This document shows, in pieces, positions 2,747-60,432 of a DNA stretch of 64,000 nt (positions within the stretch are counted from its first letter, which is position 1; each line of letters opens with the position of its first letter). A program made the position numbers and the translations under genes. Below the pieces are notes generated by a model. It saw only the letters and a program-made list of their open reading frames with translations, was not told where the DNA came from and searched no databases. Source of the stretch: a virus (taxonomy: Duplodnaviria > Heunggongvirae > Uroviricota > Caudoviricetes); IMG/VR virus record IMGVR_UViG_3300049571_000258, positions 70,186 to 134,185 of that record, one strand, 5' to 3'.

Positions 2747-5700
2747 GTGCCGACGAAGCGCGCACAGCGTCCGACGGGCGCCTCACGCATCATCGCCGCG
2801 TTCGGCCGGTACTACAAGCGGTCACGCGCAGGCGCGTCTCGGCGCGTCCTGGCGCTCCTGAGGCGCGAGCACCCTGAGCAGTCTCCCGCCGCCCTGCGAG
2901 CGCTGTTGGCGCGTGAGCAGGTCTACGAGGCGGAGTTCCAGCGCAAGATGACGGCGCGTCTGGAACGCGACATCCCGGGGATCCTGGCTCACGACGACCC
3001 GGATCACCGCAACCAGGCGATCGCTGACGTGCTCGCACGCGAGCGTCGGTTCGTCCAGATGCGCGAGCAGGCGATGGCCGAGCGCGCACTGGCCGCCGCC
3101 GAGATCGTGACCCTAGAGAAGATCTCGCCGCAGGGCGCGTTCTGGACGCTCTCGCCAGACGTCCAGAACCACACGCTGGACTGCCTGGCGATGGCCAACC
3201 AGTTCTGGCCCTACGAGGTGCTGCACAACATCCACCCACCACTGCACGTCGGGTGCCAGTGCCGCCTGATCCCGCTGCGCGACGCGATCGCACAGGGCCT
3301 CATGCGCGCCGACCAGATCCCCGACGCCCGCGACGCCGTCGTTCGTGCGCAGGCGGCTATCAAGGCGGCGCAGTCACTGGAGGAGGCCGACGCCAAGGCG
3401 CTGATCGAGGCGGCTTTCGATGATCGCCTGCATCCCCGCGGGCGTGACGGCCGGTTCATCCGCAAGTTCTCCAACCTGATCCACACGAAGCCTCCGGCGC
3501 AGAGCAACGGCGGGCGCTGGACGTGGGTCGCCGGGCATCGCGTCTTCGTGCCGGAGGGCCGCACCTTCCAGCGCACGTTCGGCGGGCGGACGTACGTCTC
3601 TCCGGCGCAGTCGACGAACATCTACGCCGACGGCAAGCTCGTGCCCCCCTCGCGACGCTTCGCCCCATTGACGATGCCGGACGGCAAGCTGGACACCGGC
3701 ACGATCGAGCGCATCCGCTCGGAGGTCGGCGACTTCGCCAAGCCTCCGACGTCGGAGCCGAAGCCGGGTGGTCAGCTGATCGACCACACGTGGGCGAACT
3801 GGGGCGAGTTCCAGCAGGAGACCAACGCGCTGTCGGCTGCACTGGGGCGCGAGTTCCACGTCGATGCGCAGCAGGGCAACGTCGACTTCGACACGAGGAT
3901 GTTCGACCACGCCGGGGCCACGGACTACAGCGGCAACACGACCTTCGGCCCCGACGTCTTCAACACGATCGAGAAGGAAGCGACGCGCCCGACCACGGGC
4001 CTGCCGCCGACCGATCAGGAGTTGGCCGACATCTACAACACGTACCGCGTGCAGGCGCACGAGGTCTCCCATCGAGTCAACTGGGCCAATCACCACGCGT
4101 ACTCGATGCCCGGCGGAGCGGTGCTAGAGGAGGCGCTGTCAGAGGAGGTCGCGCATGCGCTGCTGAAGGCCAACCTCCAGCGCCACGGTCGCGAGGACGT
4201 GTTGCGCTGGGGCGAGCAGCACCCGAACGCTGACGAGGTGCTGGGCACGTACCGCGCCTACCGGCTGGCCCTGAAGACGGCCCTGGACCAGATGGGCGTA
4301 CCGGAGCGCGACCGCATCCCGATCCTGTTCAAGTTGAAGTTCCAGACCGACCCGGAGGATCGTCTCAACGAGATGGTCCGCATCGGGCGCGGCTACCTCG
4401 GCGATGCGGCCCCCGACCTTGACGACCTGCGCGAGACCCTGGACCGCAGCGACTACGACGCGGCGAAGTACCGCTCGATCATTCCGGGCGACACGGGCCT
4501 ACCGGACCCCGGGACGCCGCTGACCGAGCGCTCGCTGGTCACCTCGATGCTCGACGGCGCGCAGCTGCTCTCGCGGCAGCACGCCAACGCGTCGGTCCAC
4601 TTCTCCGGCGTCGACTGGGCGTCACCGGAGATCGAGTACCCCTTCAACGCGCGCTACTTCCCCGGGCGCGGGCGCGTGGAGACCGGCGCGGGGATCTACC
4701 CGGCGATCAAGCGTGCATGGGAGGCCGACCACGGCGGCCCACCGCTGTCTGACGACGAGGCGCGCGATGGGTGGATGGCGCTGGCCAACCTCCAGCACGA
4801 GTTCCAGCATGCGGTCAACCCGACGCCCCAGCTTCAGTACGGCCAGGGTTGGAAGCGCGTCCTGGAGGAGGGCATCAACGAGGAGATCGCTCGGCAGGAG
4901 GCGGTTGCGACGGCGCGGCGCTTGGGCATGCACTCGGTCGTCGGCTGGGCGGAGCGCAACCGCGACGACTTCGCCGTGGCTGGCACCTACCAGTCCTACC
5001 GCCAGGCGGTGCGCCAGGTGCTGGAGGACGCCAAGGTGCCCAAGGAGAACTGGCGCGACCTGCTGTACCGGATGAAGTTCGAGATGACGCAGGACGAGCG
5101 CATGGCGCTGCTGCGCGATCACATGGCCAAGGCCAACGGCTGGGGGCCGGACTATGCGCGCGACCTGACGGCGCTGGCGCTCTCGCGCGGCGACCACCCG
5201 CGCGAACTCAAGATCGACGACTTCGAGCCGATGTTGGGCTGGCCGGAGTCGATCGTCCGGCCGCCGAAGCGCGTGGGTAAGGCCGACCCCGGCACGAAGC
5301 CGCTGGGCGGGAGGCTGACGCCGGAGACCGAGGAGACGTTGAGCAACCCGTCGTGGAGCTTCGAGATCGACCACACGCGCCGCAACGCCTACTACGGGGA
5401 CACGCACGTGCTGCGCGTCGCGCCGCGGTCGACGCCGGGCACGCGCCGCGTCGGCTCCGGCGACGTGTTCACCTACGACACGAAGGTGGCCGACGTCTCG
5501 ATCGAGGACGGTCGCCCGACTCCGGCCTTCAAGGGCGGCGACGGCTGGTCGCTGGATCTGCCCGACGAGCCGCAGCGGGGCATCGTGTTCCGGGGCATGT
5601 CCCACGGCGAGATGGAGACGCTGCGCAAGACCGGGCAGATCCACTCTCGCGGGCGCTTCAACCTCGGTGAGTCGCAGGTCGGTCTGACCTTCTACTCGAC

Positions 5701-10679: not shown

Positions 10680-10752
10680 TGGCCAGTAGCTCAGTCGGCA
10701 GAGCCATCGCCTGTTAAGCGAGGGGTCGCAGGTTCGAGTCCTGCCTGGCCAG
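10680..10752 (+). tRNA. tRNA-Asn: tRNA-Asn (GTT)
   Basis: Acceptor tggccag/ctggcca, D gctc/gagc, loop ctGTTaa, T-arm gcagg-ttcgagt-cctgc. Confidence 0.65.
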
Positions 10753-13657: not shown

Positions 13658-13900
13658 CCTCACATAGCTGCGGGCCGAAGGGCCATCGGTTCTCTGACAC
13701 CTCCCGGGAGGTGGGACGCGAGTCCACACACCGGGTCTACCCGGGGATTCACGCGAGAGCGCCCCGTTCCGATCCCACCACATGACCGCAGCGCCCTCTT
13801 GGGGACGCGGGCCGAAGGGTCTGTCGGTTACCTGCTATTGGATCAGACGGGGCCTCTGGCCCCTTTCCGACTCCCGCACCACGACCGCGTCTCCTACTTT

Positions 13901-14171: not shown

Positions 14172-14192
14172 GCTCACGTCGTGTGCTACCGT
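14172..14192 (+). promoter_or_regulatory. promoter/operator: gctcacgtcgtgtgc + TACCGT; leaderless ATG at 14201
   Basis: Member of the recurring palindrome plus extended -10 motif. Confidence 0.5.
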
Positions 14193-14200
14193 GCGCAGCC

Positions 14201-16732: not shown

Positions 16733-16753
16733 GCACACGTCGTGTGCTACGGT
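16733..16753 (+). promoter_or_regulatory. promoter/operator: gcacacgtcgtgtgc + TACGGT, upstream of the Y-RNA-like element
   Basis: Perfect-half-site palindrome immediately followed by a TAnnnT -10 box. Confidence 0.5.
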
Positions 16754-16795
16754 GCATCCCGCCGGTTCGGAGTGACCCGGCAGACATAGACCTTA

Positions 16796-16933
16796 AGGCG
16801 GAGCGGGCCGACGGGCTGTCGGTTATCTCCTGTTAAGAGAGCGTTCCAGGTTCGAGTCCTGGCCCCCGCGCTCGTGGGGGTGGTGTAACGGCAACACGCT
16901 AACGGTCGACTCCCATTCCACGACCGCTCCGCC
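16796..16933 (+). ncRNA. yrlA: Y RNA (YrlA-like: tRNA-like module closed by a long terminal helix), the Rsr partner RNA
   Basis: 10-bp perfect long-range helix ggcggagcgg (16796-16805) with ccgctccgcc (16924-16933). It encloses a T-arm ccagg-TTCGAGT-cctgg, a D-arm-like gtgt-aacggca-acac and a GTT-loop hairpin, none of which folds as a normal tRNA. Sits between a promoter and the Ro60 gene. Confidence 0.55.
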
Positions 16934-16968
16934 CTTCGTCTTCGCACGCACGAGAGAAGAGGCCAGCC

Positions 16969-18735
16969 ATGTCGTACCTACACCAGGTCAGCACACGCCG
17001 CACGCCGCAGCGTGAGCGCATCCCGGGGCGCACCGACCAGGTGCAGAACTCCGAGGGCGGCTTCGTCTGGGCGGTCGACAAGTGGACGCGCCTGGAGCGC
17101 TTCCTGATCCTCGGCGCGGAGGGCGGCACCTACTACATCGGCGAGGCCGACCTGACGAAGCAGAACGTCGGCGTGCTCGACGACTGCCTGACGGACGACC
17201 CGGCGCGCACGGTCTCCACGATCGTCGCCGTGTCGGCTGCTGGGCGCAACGCGAAGCAGGAGCCGGTCGTCTTCGCCCTGGCGTACGCCGCCGGGTTCCG
17301 CACCGAGGCCGCTCGTCAGGCGGCGCTGCGCGCGCTGCCTGACGTTGTGCGCACCGGCTCGCACATGGGCCTGTTCCTGTCCTACGTGCAGAACTTCCGC
17401 GGCTGGGGCCGCTCGCTGCGCCGCGCCGTCGGCCAGTGGTACGTCTCGCGCGACCGCATCACGGTCGACGAGGAGACCGGCGAGGCGGTCGTCGCCGAGC
17501 GCGCCGTCGACCGGGTCGCCTTCCAGATGGTCAAGTACCGCTCGCGCTACGGGTTCTCGCAGCGCGACGCCCTGCGCAAGGCGCACCCGGCCAACCGGGT
17601 GTCGTCGCGCAACCCGACGGTCGAGGGCCTGACGGAGGACCACGAGCGGCTGTACAACTGGGTCGTCAACGGTGGGGCCGACGAGCGTCTGCCGCAGGTC
17701 GTGCACGCCTTCGAGGCGGCGCAGGCGTCCGAGTCGCCTGCGCAGACGGCGAAGCTGATCGAGCGCTACGGCAACCTGCTGACGCGCGAGATGCTGCACA
17801 CCGAGCACCTGACCGACCGGGACGTCAACCGCGCCCTGGTCGAGGCAGGCATGCCGATGGGCGCGCTCGTGCGCAACCTGGCCAATCTGACGCGCTACGG
17901 CGTCTTCGAGGACCGCGCCTACGTCAAGCAGGTCGTCGCACAGCTGACCAACCCGGACGCGGTGCGCCGGTCGCGCCTGCACCCGTACGCGGTGCTGACG
18001 GCGCTGTGCACGTACGCGGCGGGCTACTCGATGACCAACCCCGAGCAGCGCTGGAACCCGGTCGCGCAGATCGTGGACGCGCTCGACGCAGCGTTCTACC
18101 TGTCGTTCGGCAACGCCGAGCCGACGGGGAAGCGCATCCGCCTGGCGCTGGACGTGTCCGGCTCGATGGGCCACCCGATCATCACCGGCTACCGCAAGGG
18201 CCGCTACGGCATGGAGGCGGTCCCGTCAGCCGTGTCGTGCGCGGCGGGCGCGGGGGCGATGGCGCTCGTGACGGCGAACATCGAGGACGACTACGACATC
18301 GTCGCGTTCTCGGACGGCCAGACCGGCGGCAGGTACATCGGCGGGTCGTGGGGCTACAACGGGGACGCGTCGGGCGCGGTGCTGGCACCGTGCACGATCT
18401 CGCCGCGCCAGCGTCTCGACGACGTCGTCGGGCAGATGAACCGGCTGAACTTCGGGCGCACCGACTGCGCGCTACCGATCCTGGACGCGGCGCAGCGAGG
18501 CCTGGAGTTCGACGCGTTCGTGGTCTACACCGACAACGAGACGTGGTTCGGCAAGGTCCACCCGACGCAGGCGCTCGCGGAGTACCGCCAGAAGACCGGG
18601 ATCCCGGCGAAGCTGGTCGTCGTGTCGATGGAGGCCAACCAGTTCTCGATCGCTCACCCCGACGACCCGGGCATGCTCGACGTCGTCGGGTTCGACCCGG
18701 CTGCCCCGGCGGTGATCGCGGACTTCCTGCGATGA
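16969..18735 (+). CDS. rsr: Ro60 ortholog Rsr (TROVE domain plus C-terminal vWA/MIDAS domain)
   Basis: SEGGFVWAVDKWTRLERFLILGAEGGTYYI and GRNAKQEPVVFALAY match the Ro60 N-terminal signature (human [29 protein letters not shown] / GRTTKQEPMLFALAI); C-terminal LALDVSGSM...T...D MIDAS motif. Confidence 0.9.
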   Translation: MSYLHQVSTRRTPQRERIPGRTDQVQNSEGGFVWAVDKWTRLERFLILGAEGGTYYIGEADLTKQNVGVLDDCLTDDPARTVSTIVAVSAAGRNAKQEPVVFALAYAAGFRTEAARQAALRALPDVVRTGSHMGLFLSYVQNFRGWGRSLRRAVGQWYVSRDRITVDEETGEAVVAERAVDRVAFQMVKYRSRYGFSQRDALRKAHPANRVSSRNPTVEGLTEDHERLYNWVVNGGADERLPQVVHAFEAAQASESPAQTAKLIERYGNLLTREMLHTEHLTDRDVNRALVEAGMPMGALVRNLANLTRYGVFEDRAYVKQVVAQLTNPDAVRRSRLHPYAVLTALCTYAAGYSMTNPEQRWNPVAQIVDALDAAFYLSFGNAEPTGKRIRLALDVSGSMGHPIITGYRKGRYGMEAVPSAVSCAAGAGAMALVTANIEDDYDIVAFSDGQTGGRYIGGSWGYNGDASGAVLAPCTISPRQRLDDVVGQMNRLNFGRTDCALPILDAAQRGLEFDAFVVYTDNETWFGKVHPTQALAEYRQKTGIPAKLVVVSMEANQFSIAHPDDPGMLDVVGFDPAAPAVIADFLR

Positions 18736-18860: not shown

Positions 18861-19102
18861 GCGGGCCGCAGAACGTCGAGCAGCAGCCTGGTGAGTCCGA
18901 GGTCGAGTTCAGCGCGCGTCGCGCGAAGGCGCACGGCGCGATGCTCGAAGCCCTGCACGCCGATGACCGCCCGGCGAAGGAGAAGCGCCTGGAGGCGCTG
19001 AGCCGGGCGGTCGCGGTGTGGGGCGACGCCGCACCCGAGCCGCCGTACAAGGCCCCGCCGCTGCGCCGCAAGCGCAAGGCCAAGCGCACCCGCAAGAAGT
19101 GA
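18857..19102 (+). CDS. small basic hypothetical protein
   Basis: GTG in a GTGA overlap; Lys/Arg-rich C-terminus. Confidence 0.4.
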   Translation: MSGPQNVEQQPGESEVEFSARRAKAHGAMLEALHADDRPAKEKRLEALSRAVAVWGDAAPEPPYKAPPLRRKRKAKRTRKK

Positions 19103-19653
19103 CCCCTGAGGTGGTCATCTGGACCGACGGCTCGTGCCCGAAGCCGGACGGTCCCGGCGGGTGGGCGGCGATCCTTCAGCGGCGCAGCGCCGACGGTGAG
19201 GTGTTGGCCGAGCGCGAGATCACCGGCGGCTCGTCGCGCACGACGAACAACCGTGCCGAGTTGATGGCGGTGATCGTCGGCCTGGAGGCGCTGAAGCGCC
19301 CATGTCGCGTGAGGATCGTCATCGACTCGCAGTACGTGATGCACGGCTTCACGCGCGGCTGGGTCCAGCAGTGGAAGCGCAACGGCTGGCGCACGAAGGG
19401 TGAGGCGAACCTGCTGACGCACGCAGGGGACCCGACGAACGTGGTGAAGAACCGCGACCTGTGGGAGCGCCTGGACGCGCTCGTGGCTGAGCATCAGGTC
19501 GAGTGGCATCACGTGAAGGGGCACCTGAAGCCGTCGCATGCCGACTGGACGGAGTGGCACGCCAACAACATCCGCTGCGACGAGCTAGCCGGTGCCGAGA
19601 CGAAGCGCATCAAGGAGGCGCTGACCTTGGTCGAAGCACAAGCTGTGTGCTAG
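19099..19653 (+). CDS. rnhA: ribonuclease HI
   Basis: IWTDGSC...GGWAA...TNNRAELMAV...HHVKGH...N..DELA, the canonical RNase H1 catalytic motifs; GTG in a GTGA overlap. Confidence 0.85.
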   Translation: MTPEVVIWTDGSCPKPDGPGGWAAILQRRSADGEVLAEREITGGSSRTTNNRAELMAVIVGLEALKRPCRVRIVIDSQYVMHGFTRGWVQQWKRNGWRTKGEANLLTHAGDPTNVVKNRDLWERLDALVAEHQVEWHHVKGHLKPSHADWTEWHANNIRCDELAGAETKRIKEALTLVEAQAVC

Positions 19654-32901: not shown

Positions 32902-32922
32902 AGCACATGACATGTGCTACAG
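32902..32922 (+). promoter_or_regulatory. promoter/operator: gcacatgacatgtgc + TACAGT, upstream of the SPFH gene
   Basis: Palindrome GCACAT-gac-ATGTGC abutting a TAnnnT box; SD gaggaggg and TTG 32962 downstream. Confidence 0.5.
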
Positions 32923-32961
32923 TGCGCGCCGCACGCAACCTAATCCCAACGAGGAGGGACA

Positions 32962-46439: not shown

Positions 46440-46460
46440 GCTCACAACGTGTGCTATAGT
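46440..46460 (+). promoter_or_regulatory. promoter/operator: gctcacaacgtgtgc + TATAGT
   Basis: Immediately after tRNA-Tyr; followed ~80 nt later by a strong terminator; no ORF in between. Confidence 0.5.
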
Positions 46461-46544
46461 GCCCGGCACATACTGATCCTCGTGATGTAGCCCATCGCGG
46501 GCGGAGGTCAGGCACGAGAGCACAGCCGCATCTGAGTAGGCTGA

Positions 46545-47119: not shown

Positions 47120-47140
47120 GCTCACGATGTGTGCTACGGT
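47120..47140 (+). promoter_or_regulatory. promoter/operator: gctcacgatgtgtgc + TACGGT
   Basis: Followed by SD ggagaggtaggtag plus ATG 47181. Confidence 0.5.
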
Positions 47141-47180
47141 GTCCGGCGTGTGTAGTGCCAACGACCGGAGAGGTAGGTAG

Positions 47181-60351: not shown

Positions 60352-60373
60352 AGCACACGACGTGTGCTATCAT
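60348..60373 (+). promoter_or_regulatory. promoter/operator: TTGAAG ... gcacacgacgtgtgc + TATCAT
   Basis: Perfect half-sites GCACAC/GTGTGC; SD gagaggtag plus ATG 60433 downstream. Confidence 0.5.
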
Positions 60374-60432
60374 GCATCTCAGCAAATGACCCACGACCAG
60401 GGTCACGACCAAACAACCGAGAGAGGTAGACG

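Follow-up and report, generated by a model that had tools for sequence, protein, structure and literature searches.

The 64-kb stretch of viral DNA analyzed here (the window) very probably contains, at 16797-16933, the gene for a YrlA-type Y RNA that would be the partner of the Ro60 protein encoded immediately downstream. The 137-nt element shares a strand with Ro60 and is separated from its ATG by 35 nt, a position within the definition of YrlA (≤4 kb from a Ro60/Rsr ortholog, same strand). A covariance model, R1, trained on 47 elements neighboring other Ro60 genes (the published YrlA of mycobacteriophage ET08 among them, the window left out), matches the element over its full length (16798-16932, model positions 1-140) with 90.5 bits and E = 6e-18. 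All 32 modeled pairs are intact, none of them non-standard, and the score falls in the middle of the family range (66-132 bits). The second-best R1 match in the window, at 35.9 bits, is a tandem tRNA, and a strict descriptor of T arm, closed hairpin and D arm in this order matches the 64 kb at a single site, the element itself. The R1 score and the covarying closing helix described below support the proposal of the initial annotation, which was made from the letters of the window, that a YrlA-type architecture adjoins a phage Ro60 gene.

The pairing of Ro60 with a Y RNA is already known from phages and bacteria. As early as 2014, 22 phages with YrlA beside Ro60 were listed (Chen et al.; PMC4201824), and Thermus phage phiLo followed in 2025 (PMC12135203). 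What is new is a well-supported Ro60 and Y RNA module in an uncultivated high-GC phage (contig of at least 134 kb) with a slightly unusual tRNA-like part. For the infection biology of Ro60, the locus alone is no more testable than the cultured phages ET08 and Cashline.

The description of the 588-aa ORF as a Ro60/TROVE ortholog with a C-terminal MIDAS is borne out by Pfam matches to TROVE (2.2e-32, residues 25-345) and vWA_Ro60 (4.2e-54, residues 389-586), by matches to the solved Ro60/Rsr structures 1YVP (7.7e-91, residues 19-586) and 2NVO (8.1e-88), and by the MIDAS motif DxSxS, which reads DVSGS at residues 395-399 and is unchanged throughout the Ro60 alignment. D395, S397, S399, T498 and D522 are all invariant in this alignment. 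No sequence on record exceeds 57% identity to the protein. An exact-protein look-up returned two copies of it, one of them on a contig that ends 61 nt upstream of the gene.

Parts of the element and their covariation

The RNA would consist of two modules: a Ro60-binding module, made of the terminal helix, an internal loop containing GCCGACGG and a second short stem, and a permuted tRNA mimic (Table 1).

Table 1. Features of the Ro60 and Y RNA locus, with positions in the window
Feature	Position	Strand	Basis or remark
Probable short YrlB-like Y RNA	13667-13792	+	R1 22.6 bits, E = 0.0038 over 64 kb; pattern search
Probable short YrlB-like Y RNA	13804-13891	+	R1 33 bits, E = 2e-5 over 64 kb; pattern search
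Recurring promoter/operator-like motif, GCACACGT-CGTGTGC-TACGGT-GCA	16733-16756	+	Motif recurrence
YrlA-type Y RNA gene (very probable), 137 nt, first to last base of terminal helix	16797-16933	+	R1 model
Terminal helix, 5′ strand GGCGGAGCGG	16797-16806	+	Pairs with 16924-16933, CCGCUCCGCC
Putative Ro60-binding motif GCCGACGG	16807-16814	+	Internal loop facing AUUCCACGA (16915-16923)
Stem in place of the tRNA anticodon stem, GUCGG with UCGAC	16818-16822 with 16906-16910	+	Covariation
Conserved UUAU (YUAY)	16823-16826	+	GGTTA invariant in A2
V hairpin UCUC-CUGUUAA-GAGA, 4 bp, anticodon-loop-like 7-nt loop	16826-16840	+	Helix 3 of the family
T arm CCAGG-UUCGAGU-CCUGG	16846-16862	+	Helix 4 of the family
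Closed acceptor-stem mimic CCCCCGC-GCUC-GUGGGGG, 7 bp	16863-16880	+	Helix 5 of the family
U8-G9, then D arm GUGU-AACGGCA-ACAC	16881-16897 (D arm 16883-16897)	+	Tertiary-pair comparison
Shine-Dalgarno-like GAAGAGG	16956-16962	+	5′ of the Ro60 ORF
Ro60/Rsr ortholog ORF, 588 aa	16969-18735	+	TROVE ring and vWA domain with MIDAS site
RNase H	19099-19653		Pfam 9.4e-34

The ends of the element, GGCGGAGCGG and CCGCTCCGCC, form a perfect 10-bp helix. The initial annotation had recognized this helix and placed its 3′ strand correctly; its 5′ strand, given as 16796-16805, lies one nucleotide further on. Covariation was measured on 59 elements, a sample without near-identical relatives of the window's locus. 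In these, 95.5% of cells are paired, compared with 33-51% when the partners are slid, changes on both sides occur in 30 of the 32 pairs, and all six helices covary; the covariation score is 0.644, versus 0.18 in shuffles, and none of 500 shuffles reaches it. The terminal helix (helix 1), whose conservation in homologs had been named as a check, differs in sequence among them: each of its eight modeled pairs shows changes on both strands, and pairing is kept in 95.5% of cells. The GUCGG/UCGAC stem (helix 2) has changes on both sides in 5/5 pairs and 94.5% of cells paired, the V hairpin is 85.5% paired, the T arm is 100% paired, and the acceptor mimic has changes on both sides in 6/6 pairs.

A Ro60-binding motif, GNCGAA(N)G, has been defined near the 5′ end of YrlA (Chen et al., 2014; PMC4201824). 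GCCGACGG differs from it by one mismatch (A to C), reading GCCGAC. Among 102 family members, GCCGGA is the commonest variant (36), followed by GCCGAA (14), GCCGGC (8) and GCCGAC (6), and CGAA occurs in just 15. Pairing of GGG (16813-16815) with CCC (16912-16914), which is seen again in both short paralogs described below, may extend the GUCGG/UCGAC stem. A local hairpin within the 5′ strand, GCCGAC/GUCGGU, is favored in the minimum free energy (MFE) fold; we rejected it because its register is lost in homologs, whereas the long-range pairing covaries.

Comparison across the family shows the tRNA-like half to be a circularly permuted tRNA mimic, in which V hairpin, T arm, closed acceptor stem and D arm follow one another and the Ro-binding stem takes the position of the anticodon stem. 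The initial annotation had listed a T arm (CCAGG-TTCGAGT-CCTGG), a D-arm-like hairpin and a GTT loop as parts that fail to assemble into a tRNA. The T arm is present as described, and the D-arm-like hairpin is a true D arm; GTT does occur in a 7-nt loop, CTGTTAA, but this loop belongs to the V hairpin and not to an anticodon arm. With the 7-bp acceptor-like hairpin, which had gone undescribed, the parts do form a tRNA, in permuted order. CUGUUAA is the most frequent V loop in the family (8 of 62 seven-nt loops). U16845 is the equivalent of tRNA position 48, and the tertiary pairs U8:A14, A15:U48 (the Levitt pair), G18G19 with U55C56, and U54:A58 are all possible. U8:A14 is kept in 59/59 sequences, and the Levitt pair is G:C in 41 and A:U in 14, the window among them, with four exceptions.

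Curated models miss this clade. Neither at gathering thresholds nor at E ≤ 10 did an Rfam search of 301 nt match YrlA or tRNA to the element. With a 151-nt query and laxer filters, two matches surfaced: the Rfam YrlA family RF02553, the top-scoring family, with 21 bits (E = 0.018, core only; gathering score 69), and the tRNA family, with 16 bits. RF02553 gives 37.4 bits on the published ET08 YrlA and 36-42 bits on other actinobacterial and actinophage YrlAs, and thus falls below the cut-off of 69 for every such member tested. The covariance-model check suggested earlier comes out positive with R1 and far below threshold with Rfam. In the folding that had also been suggested, the comparative structure has a free energy of −57.0 kcal/mol, but the MFE structure, at −62.5, is a different fold and 5.5 kcal/mol lower. 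Single-sequence folding of the element is not significant against shuffles (z = −1.4 to −1.75), and with its differing fold the MFE prediction was dropped as evidence either way.

Alternative readings of the element

Since the element abuts the start of Ro60 and a scan found no intrinsic terminator between them, it could work as a folded leader at the 5′ end of the Ro60 mRNA instead of a free RNA, for example as an autoregulatory Ro60-binding site controlling translation. The 35-nt spacing and a promoter-like motif that lies upstream of element and Ro60 alike would fit such a role in cis. However, homologs occur at variable distances and in tandem arrays, those of Sixama phage are found in a tRNA array over 1 kb downstream of Ro60, and the two paralogs at 13.7-13.9 kb in the window, 3 kb from Ro60, cannot be its leader. 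In addition, the YrlA RNAs of Mycobacterium smegmatis and Salmonella accumulate as discrete Rsr-bound RNAs (PMC4201824). We consider a leader function quite improbable.

A tRNA-Asn(GUU) gene or decayed tRNA pseudogene, followed by unrelated hairpins, is very unlikely and is largely refuted. ARAGORN does call tRNA-Asn(gtt) at 16798-16871, and the tRNA-island setting, the perfect T arm and the 7-nt CUGUUAA loop are what such a gene would have. Yet the element scores only 16.3 bits with the tRNA model of Rfam (E = 0.44, cut-off 29), 17 of the window's 19 other ARAGORN calls score 33-66 bits, and a good tRNA-Asn(GUU) with 63 bits is already present at 10680-10752. In the ARAGORN cloverleaf, the acceptor contains two mismatches and three G's stand where U8-N9 should be; its "anticodon" triplet varies freely in homologs. 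It also leaves unexplained three features that are conserved and covary there, namely the terminal helix, the closed acceptor hairpin and the true D arm. We regard the call as a weak artefact in which the V hairpin is read as an anticodon arm; tRNA finders can mislabel such Y RNA elements in this way.

That the element is a chance product or functionless relic of two fused tRNAs is barely credible: tandem tRNAs can mimic the T-to-D order (a warning of Chen et al., PMC4201824), some in the window give partial R1 matches, and a dimeric tRNA has been proposed as the origin of YrlA (10.1101/312249), but those matches span only model positions 28-105 at ≤36 bits, whereas here a perfect 7-bp stem capped by a 4-nt loop links the halves in place of two free acceptor ends, a complete Ro-binding module is present and 32/32 modeled pairs are intact.

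Genomic setting and relatives

As noted earlier, the upstream promoter-like motif recurs: six copies with ≤3 mismatches lie on the + strand, versus 0.88 expected, and 0/100 shuffles reach six. Its parts are a 7-bp inverted repeat and an extended −10-like TGnTAnnnT (TACGGT at 16748-16753). A scan for the sigma-70 consensus found no promoter; the motif would act as a promoter or operator, with a predicted transcription start near 16760. Ro60 and the RNA would share a transcript, which probably begins at the extended −10-like motif (16745-16753) or, alternatively, arises by read-through from the tRNA array. The tRNA island and RNase H neighbor named in the initial annotation were also recovered, as 13 ARAGORN tRNA calls at 10.5-16.9 kb, of which the element is one, and as a Pfam match. 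Among the ORFs neighboring Ro60, no RtcB/RtcA-like RNA-repair genes were found; RNase H and unannotated ORFs make up this neighborhood.

Two probable short Y RNAs are encoded within the tRNA array, and both carry the exact-match motif GCCGAAGG. In the first, which starts 8 nt after tRNA-Ala, the Ro-binding module consists of GCUGCGG/CCGCAGC, GCCGAAGG, UCGG/CCGA and a CCACAUGA bulge, and the 77-nt insert is not tRNA-like; the repeat family D20 connects this RNA to 16803-16828. In the second, which stops 10 nt before tRNA-Gly, the module is GACGCGG/CCGCGUC, GCCGAAGG, GUCGG/CCGAC and UUACC, the insert is a small hairpin, and the MFE fold reproduces the module. Both probably serve the same Ro60. 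Like YrlB of Salmonella and M. smegmatis, they keep the Ro-binding module and have neither D arm nor acceptor mimic; unlike YrlB, they lie 3 kb from Ro60, between tRNA-Ala and tRNA-Gly, and their inserts show no sequence relationship to known YrlBs. Comparable short elements flank the ET08 YrlA (L151, 3070-3136 and 3331-3412), and another is present at ~405-470 of L020, the nearest relative.

Synteny in relatives was a further check proposed earlier. Across ~100 Ro60 loci, 105/105 matches in Ro60-oriented loci are on the Ro60 strand. A further 48 matches, from independent IMG/VR loci, are without exception on that strand too, and most of them lie within 1.1 kb upstream of the gene. L020, whose Ro60 is 57% identical, has tRNA-Cys, Y RNAs and Ro60 in the same order as the window and shares GCCGACGG and the CACGA-CC flank. 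A DNA similarity search against known phages found no close relative of the locus, and only the neighboring tRNA-Cys matches Microbacterium phages. A "Ro-like RNA binding protein" is annotated in hundreds of actinophage genomes; Y RNA annotation is absent from all eight annotated phage records inspected.

Comparison with known Y RNAs and possible roles

Hallmarks by which a YrlA is recognized include binding by Ro60/Rsr in vivo and modification by TruB and DusA. Like the YrlAs of Salmonella Typhimurium, M. smegmatis and mycobacteriophage ET08, the window element is a same-strand neighbor of Ro60/Rsr, is closed by a terminal helix, carries a GNCG-type motif along with the conserved YUAY, follows the order of V hairpin, T arm, closed acceptor-like stem and D arm, and keeps the tRNA tertiary pairs, the covarying Levitt pair included. 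A crystal structure of YrlA shows a tRNA-like fold (Wang et al., 2018; 10.1101/312249). The element differs in that GCCGAC replaces GNCGAA and the RF02553 score is only 21 bits. Its T stem is CCAGG/CCUGG where YrlA has a near-invariant GCGGG/CCCGY, and its D stem is GUGU/ACAC with G9 where GCUC/GAGC with A9 is near-invariant; the canonical UA-GCUC-AGUGGUA-GAGC thus becomes UG-GUGU-AACGGCA-ACAC.

How unusual is this D arm? A GUGU D stem occurs in 3 of ~108 elements, L301 among them, and the combination G9-G12-C23 was found only in the window element and in L150:823-959. Scanning IMG/VR for UG-GUGU-AAYGGYA-ACAC returned mostly genuine tRNAs, mostly tRNA-Gln by ARAGORN; a second pattern scan returned tandem tRNAs and one true relative, L150 (contig IMGVR_UViG_3300036861_000610), which encodes no Ro60 in the 1.3-kb stretch examined. 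Since D stems are non-canonical in 17/52 phage loci, the canonical D-stem sequence is not universal in phages. In phages, the supposedly invariant YrlA elbow sequence is variable, which bears on which factor the tRNA-like domain binds; structural work proposed the "elbow" (D and T stems) as the effector contact. It is conceivable, if rather unlikely, that the replaced D and T stems mark a phage YrlA subclass that recruits another host partner or imitates a particular tRNA. Phages with several YrlA paralogs that carry differing tRNA-type D arms in tRNA arrays might deploy them as a panel of tRNA decoys.

For Thermus phage phiLo (PMC12135203), experiments showed binding of the phage-encoded Ro60 to host PNPase and to two Y-like RNAs encoded upstream of it, a cryo-EM complex, and attenuation of host PNPase. 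PhiLo resembles the window in having a phage Ro60 preceded, on its own strand, by multiple Y-like RNAs, and its Yrl1 and Yrl2 have a stem-bulge-stem with a CGAA-type motif, comparable to the GCCGAAGG of the window's short Y RNAs. It differs in its thermophile host and in a Ro60 only distantly related to the window's; no tRNA-like domain is mentioned for the phiLo RNAs in the available part of that report, unlike the window element, which also has CGAC where phiLo has CGAA, a motif whose mutation weakened binding.

The working functional model is Yrn1 of Deinococcus radiodurans, the Y RNA of RYPER, where it links Ro60 with PNPase and controls access to the Ro60 cavity. Yrn1 contains a T-arm-like element, as does the window element, but its tRNA-like parts are in another order and both strands of its Ro-binding helix are conserved; homology between the two was not detected. 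By analogy with the family, Ro60 would bind the stem-and-loop module, the Y RNA would gate the Ro60 ring, and the tRNA-like elbow would tether Ro60 to a host factor. Since no phage PNPase was seen among the ORFs scanned, the effector would come from the host. It might be polynucleotide phosphorylase, the partner in the RYPER of Deinococcus and Salmonella and in the phiLo complex, or a tRNA-binding protein. During infection, host decay of structured RNA could in this way be redirected or restrained. The idea in the initial annotation that Ro60 and its Y RNA form an RNA quality-control or processing unit is plausible on the same analogy. [quoted passage not shown]

Ro60 gene and its upstream region

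The ORF at 16969-18735 (+) encodes 588 amino acids, and the initial annotation's identification of a Ro60/TROVE ortholog with a MIDAS holds. Pfam TROVE and vWA_Ro60 match residues 25-345 (2.2e-32) and 389-586 (4.2e-54), solved Ro60 structures from Xenopus (1YVP, 7.7e-91) and Deinococcus (Rsr, 2NVO, 8.1e-88) align over nearly its full length, and the MIDAS residues, DVSGS (395-399) plus T498 and D522, do not vary when the protein is aligned with 11 homologs from phages and bacteria. Carriage of Ro60 by phages is common: among GenBank phage records, 355 have a tblastn match (212 from phages of Mycobacterium, 115 of Streptomyces, 11 of Gordonia, 10 of Microbacterium, and others), with nearly all of the matches listed annotated "Ro-like RNA binding protein", and at least 443 IMG/VR stretches match. 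All GenBank phage matches are at most 45% identical to the window protein. Exact copies of this protein are confined to JGI metagenomes, where the contig extends up to 134 kb. Its closest relative (locus L020) is 57% identical, and MAGs of Gaiellaceae and Solirubrobacterales supply the next closest, at ~52%.

PHROG matches in the window include RNase H, DNA primase, a UvsX-like recombinase and a minor head protein, with an endolysin domain within a 1160-aa protein; neither RtcB nor RtcA was found among the ORFs neighboring Ro60. The motif GCACACGnCGTGTGC-TAYnGT-GC, in which a 7-bp inverted repeat and an extended -10-like TGnTAnnnT overlap, occurs six times, always on the + strand (0.88 copies expected), and is probably a phage promoter paired with an operator that a dimeric regulator would bind. 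From the copy nearest the Y RNA we infer a transcription start near 16760. The copy near 14180 ends 5 nt ahead of an ORF start, suggesting a leaderless transcript; scanning found no sigma-70 consensus site. As we detected no terminator separating the Y RNA from Ro60, whose ATG follows GAAGAGG by 6 nt, the two are likely co-transcribed, and the Y RNA element may have a role in cis, as a leader of Ro60 mRNA.

Architecture and family support of the YrlA-type element

The YrlA-type Y RNA element is closed by a 10-bp terminal helix (GGCGGAGCGG/CCGCUCCGCC). The initial annotation had described this helix and correctly placed its 3′ arm (16924-16933), but the 5′ arm is shifted by one base (16797-16806). 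The predicted interior is the permuted tRNA layout, V hairpin, T arm, acceptor-stem mimic (AS) and D arm flanked by a Ro-binding stem, that defines YrlA (Chen et al., 2014; PMC4201824). The comparative structure has a free energy of -57.0 kcal/mol versus -62.5 for the minimum-free-energy structure, which is a different fold; single-sequence folding was uninformative (z ~-1.7).

Features of the window and of two comparison loci; the parts of the YrlA-type element run in order from its 5′ helix arm
Feature	Coordinates	Strand	Detail
YrlA part 1		+	GCCGACGG
YrlA part 2		+	GUCGG
YrlA part 3		+	UUAU
YrlA part 4, V hairpin	16826-16840	+	4 bp, loop CUGUUAA
YrlA part 5, T arm		+	CCAGG-UUCGAGU-CCUGG
YrlA part 6, closed 7-bp hairpin		+	CCCCCGC-GCUC-GUGGGGG
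YrlA part 7		+	U-G
YrlA part 8, D arm		+	GUGU-AACGGCA-ACAC
YrlA part 9		+	GCUAACGG
YrlA part 10		+	UCGAC, 13-nt strand, 3′ terminal-helix arm
Short Y RNA-like element	13667-13792	+	R1 match 13665-13794, 22.6 bits; GCUGCGG/GCCGAAGGG/cca/UCGG/UUCUC ... CCGA/UCCC/aCCACAUGA/CCGCAGC
Short Y RNA-like element	13804-13891	+	R1 match 13802-13893, 33 bits; GACGCGG/GCCGAAGGG/ucu/GUCGG/UUACC ... CCGAC/UCCC/gcaCCACGA/CCGCGUC
Promoter-like motif	14172-14195	+	
Promoter-like motif	16733-16756	+	
Promoter-like motif	32903-32926	+	
Promoter-like motif	46440-46463	+	
Promoter-like motif	47120-47143	+	
Promoter-like motif	60353-60376	+	
tRNA array, L153	43-927		beside Ro60/YrlA
tRNA arrays, L159	456-678; 4003-4421		beside Ro60/YrlA

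A strict descriptor (T arm, closed hairpin, U plus one base, D arm with GG, GUUA upstream) had a single match in the 64-kb window and 57 in loci from elsewhere. Of these 58 matches, 56 are on the orientation strand, which in Ro60 loci is the Ro60 strand; the remaining two are in L150 (IMGVR_UViG_3300036861_000610), where there is no Ro60 to orient the locus. The covariance model R1 was built from 47 elements of other loci (alignment A2, annotated with six helices; the window and a variant copy in L150 were excluded). Searched against the whole window, this family model backs the proposed Y RNA along its full length (16798-16932, model positions 1-140, 90.5 bits, E = 6e-18), with every pair standard. 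This score is mid-range for the family: about 100 Ro60 loci yielded 107 matches at E <= 1e-6, with 105/105 of those in loci oriented by Ro60 on its strand, and 80 independent IMG/VR Ro60 loci yielded 48 more, each of them on the strand of Ro60 and most of them <=1.1 kb upstream. The second-best window match (35.9 bits), a tandem tRNA-Ile/tRNA-Val pair, is a false positive of the dimeric-tRNA type against which Chen et al. (2014; PMC4201824) cautioned.

Across the 59 best elements, standard pairs fill 95.5% of pair cells, compared with 33-51% after shifting the partners by 1-3 columns; fitting the alignment to the model favors the structure, but even so the modelled pairing exceeds these shifted controls by a wide margin. 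Both sides change in 30 of 32 pairs, and the covariation score of 0.644 (0.18 in shuffles) was reached by 0/500 shuffles. U8:A14 is kept in all 59 elements, and G15:C48 forms the Levitt pair in 41, A15:U48 in 14 (the window included), with four exceptions. Judged by sequence comparison, the element has the predicted structure and is a member of the YrlA family.

ARAGORN counts the element among 20 tRNAs in the window, as a tRNA-Asn(GTT) at 16798-16871, because its V hairpin resembles an anticodon arm; we reject this weak call, which has two acceptor mismatches in its cloverleaf, three G's at the U8-N9 position and only 16.3 bits with the Rfam tRNA model (E = 0.44; cut-off 29), while a good tRNA-Asn(GTT) is already present at 10680-10752. 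In family alignments A4 and A5, the V loop has 7 nt in 62 of 108 elements, with U at position 2 in 51 of these and a purine at position 6 in 55, and its commonest sequence is CUGUUAA. Such a V hairpin fits descent of YrlA from a dimeric or permuted tRNA.

Variant elbow and paralogs

In the elbow, formed by the D and T stems of the tRNA mimic, canonical YrlA has UA-GCUC-AGUGGUA-GAGC and GCGGG/CCCGY, whereas the window YrlA has UG-GUGU-AACGGCA-ACAC and CCAGG/CCUGG. These changes are compensatory, with G9 and G12-C23 replacing A9 and U12-A23. Although the canonical stems have been described as nearly invariant and proposed to contact an effector (PMC4201824; 10.1101/312249), non-canonical D stems occur in 17 of 52 elements of our IMG/VR set. 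On its minus strand, L150 carries two tandem YrlA-type elements, 823-959 and 967-1109, in a 1.3-kb stretch that encodes no Ro60. One is canonical; the T and D arms of the second (823-959) are identical to those of the window, an elbow that we found in this one IMG/VR contig. L301 likewise has an element with the GUGU D stem, 610 nt upstream of its Ro60.

Tandem YrlA paralogs in phage loci (in IMG/VR, L248, L249, L256, L262, L269, L288, L238, L308, L252 and L286) differ in their D arms, which include UC-GUCU-AGCGGCCUA-GGAC, UG-GCGC, UG-GCCG and UG-GCAG; UC-GUCU...GGAC appears eight times in the IMG/VR set, often in a second paralog beside a canonical one. These arms look like those of different tRNA types. 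As plain sequence in viral contigs, the window D arm falls in tRNA-Gln in 73 of 106 ARAGORN tRNA calls. The putative Ro60-binding motif of the window YrlA, GCCGAC, differs from GNCGAA; in the clade GCCGGA is dominant and GCCGAC is found in 6/102.

Accompanying RNAs, relatives and annotation

Two short elements in the tRNA array repeat the Ro-binding module of the window YrlA almost base for base, including the exact GCCGAAGG, with other inserts in place of the tRNA mimic. They resemble the YrlB-like RNAs (short Y RNAs lacking a tRNA mimic) that flank the YrlA of mycobacteriophage ET08. Their placement between tRNA-Ala and tRNA-Gly, with gaps of 8 and 10 nt to the tRNAs, suggests that they are co-transcribed and processed with these tRNAs. 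The module pattern has four matches in the window (the YrlA, the two short elements and one site in a coding region) versus 1.0 expected, a count reached by 0/100 shuffles.

L020 has the same gene order as the window, tRNA-Cys, short Y-like RNA, full YrlA and Ro60, and the two YrlAs have in common GCCGACGG and the 3′ flank ...CACGA-CC.... In ET08, a single YrlA, shown in Figure 1D of Chen et al. (2014; PMC4201824), has a short Y-like RNA on each side. Gordonia phage Sixama contains two unannotated R1 matches (5171-5304 and 5379-5513) in a tRNA array downstream of Ro60, one of which is overlapped by a spurious ARAGORN tRNA-Leu(gag) at 5364-5452; an unannotated YrlA-type element in another comparison locus (L009, 2598-2667) is called "tRNA-???". 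We inspected eight annotated phage records, and no Y RNA is listed in any. Dense tRNA arrays border the Ro60 + YrlA loci L153 and L159; in L153, 13 tRNAs are packed into 900 nt. The contigs bearing these loci, ~22-25 kb long and binned to Actinomycetota or Gaiellaceae MAGs, may derive from a phage or prophage instead of the host chromosome.

By analogy with other Ro60 systems, the window Y RNA would act with its Ro60. In Deinococcus and Salmonella, a Y RNA uses its stem and loop to bind Ro60, gates the cavity of the protein and links it to PNPase (PMC4201824); in Thermus phage phiLo, Ro60 associates with host PNPase, damping PNPase activity, and with two Y-like RNAs encoded upstream (PMC12135203). 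Since YrlA beside Ro60 has been known in 22 phages since 2014 (PMC4201824), the window YrlA is a new, somewhat divergent case of a known pairing. Its modest interest lies in the variant elbow, the interleaving of the three RNAs with tRNAs and the failure of standard annotation tools on its clade.

The Rfam search proposed in the initial annotation gives a sub-threshold match to YrlA: RF02553 is the best Rfam family there, matching the T-AS-D core, but at 21 bits (E = 0.018) it falls far short of its gathering score of 69. The published ET08 YrlA (L151) scores 37.4 bits, and elements from Gaiellaceae, Cashline (L011), prophiT37-1 and L020 score 36-42; the loci covered are L151, L153, L159, L011, L014 and L020. 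RF02553 is insensitive for the whole actinobacterial/actinophage clade; because all its tested YrlAs score in this range, standard Rfam annotation would miss the clade. With 31.8 bits, the YrlA of Gordonia phage Cashline (2340-2467) comes close to the gathering score (38) of ceN72-3_ceN74-2, a nematode small-RNA family; its members are stem-bulge RNAs, which are considered the Y RNA homologs of nematodes.
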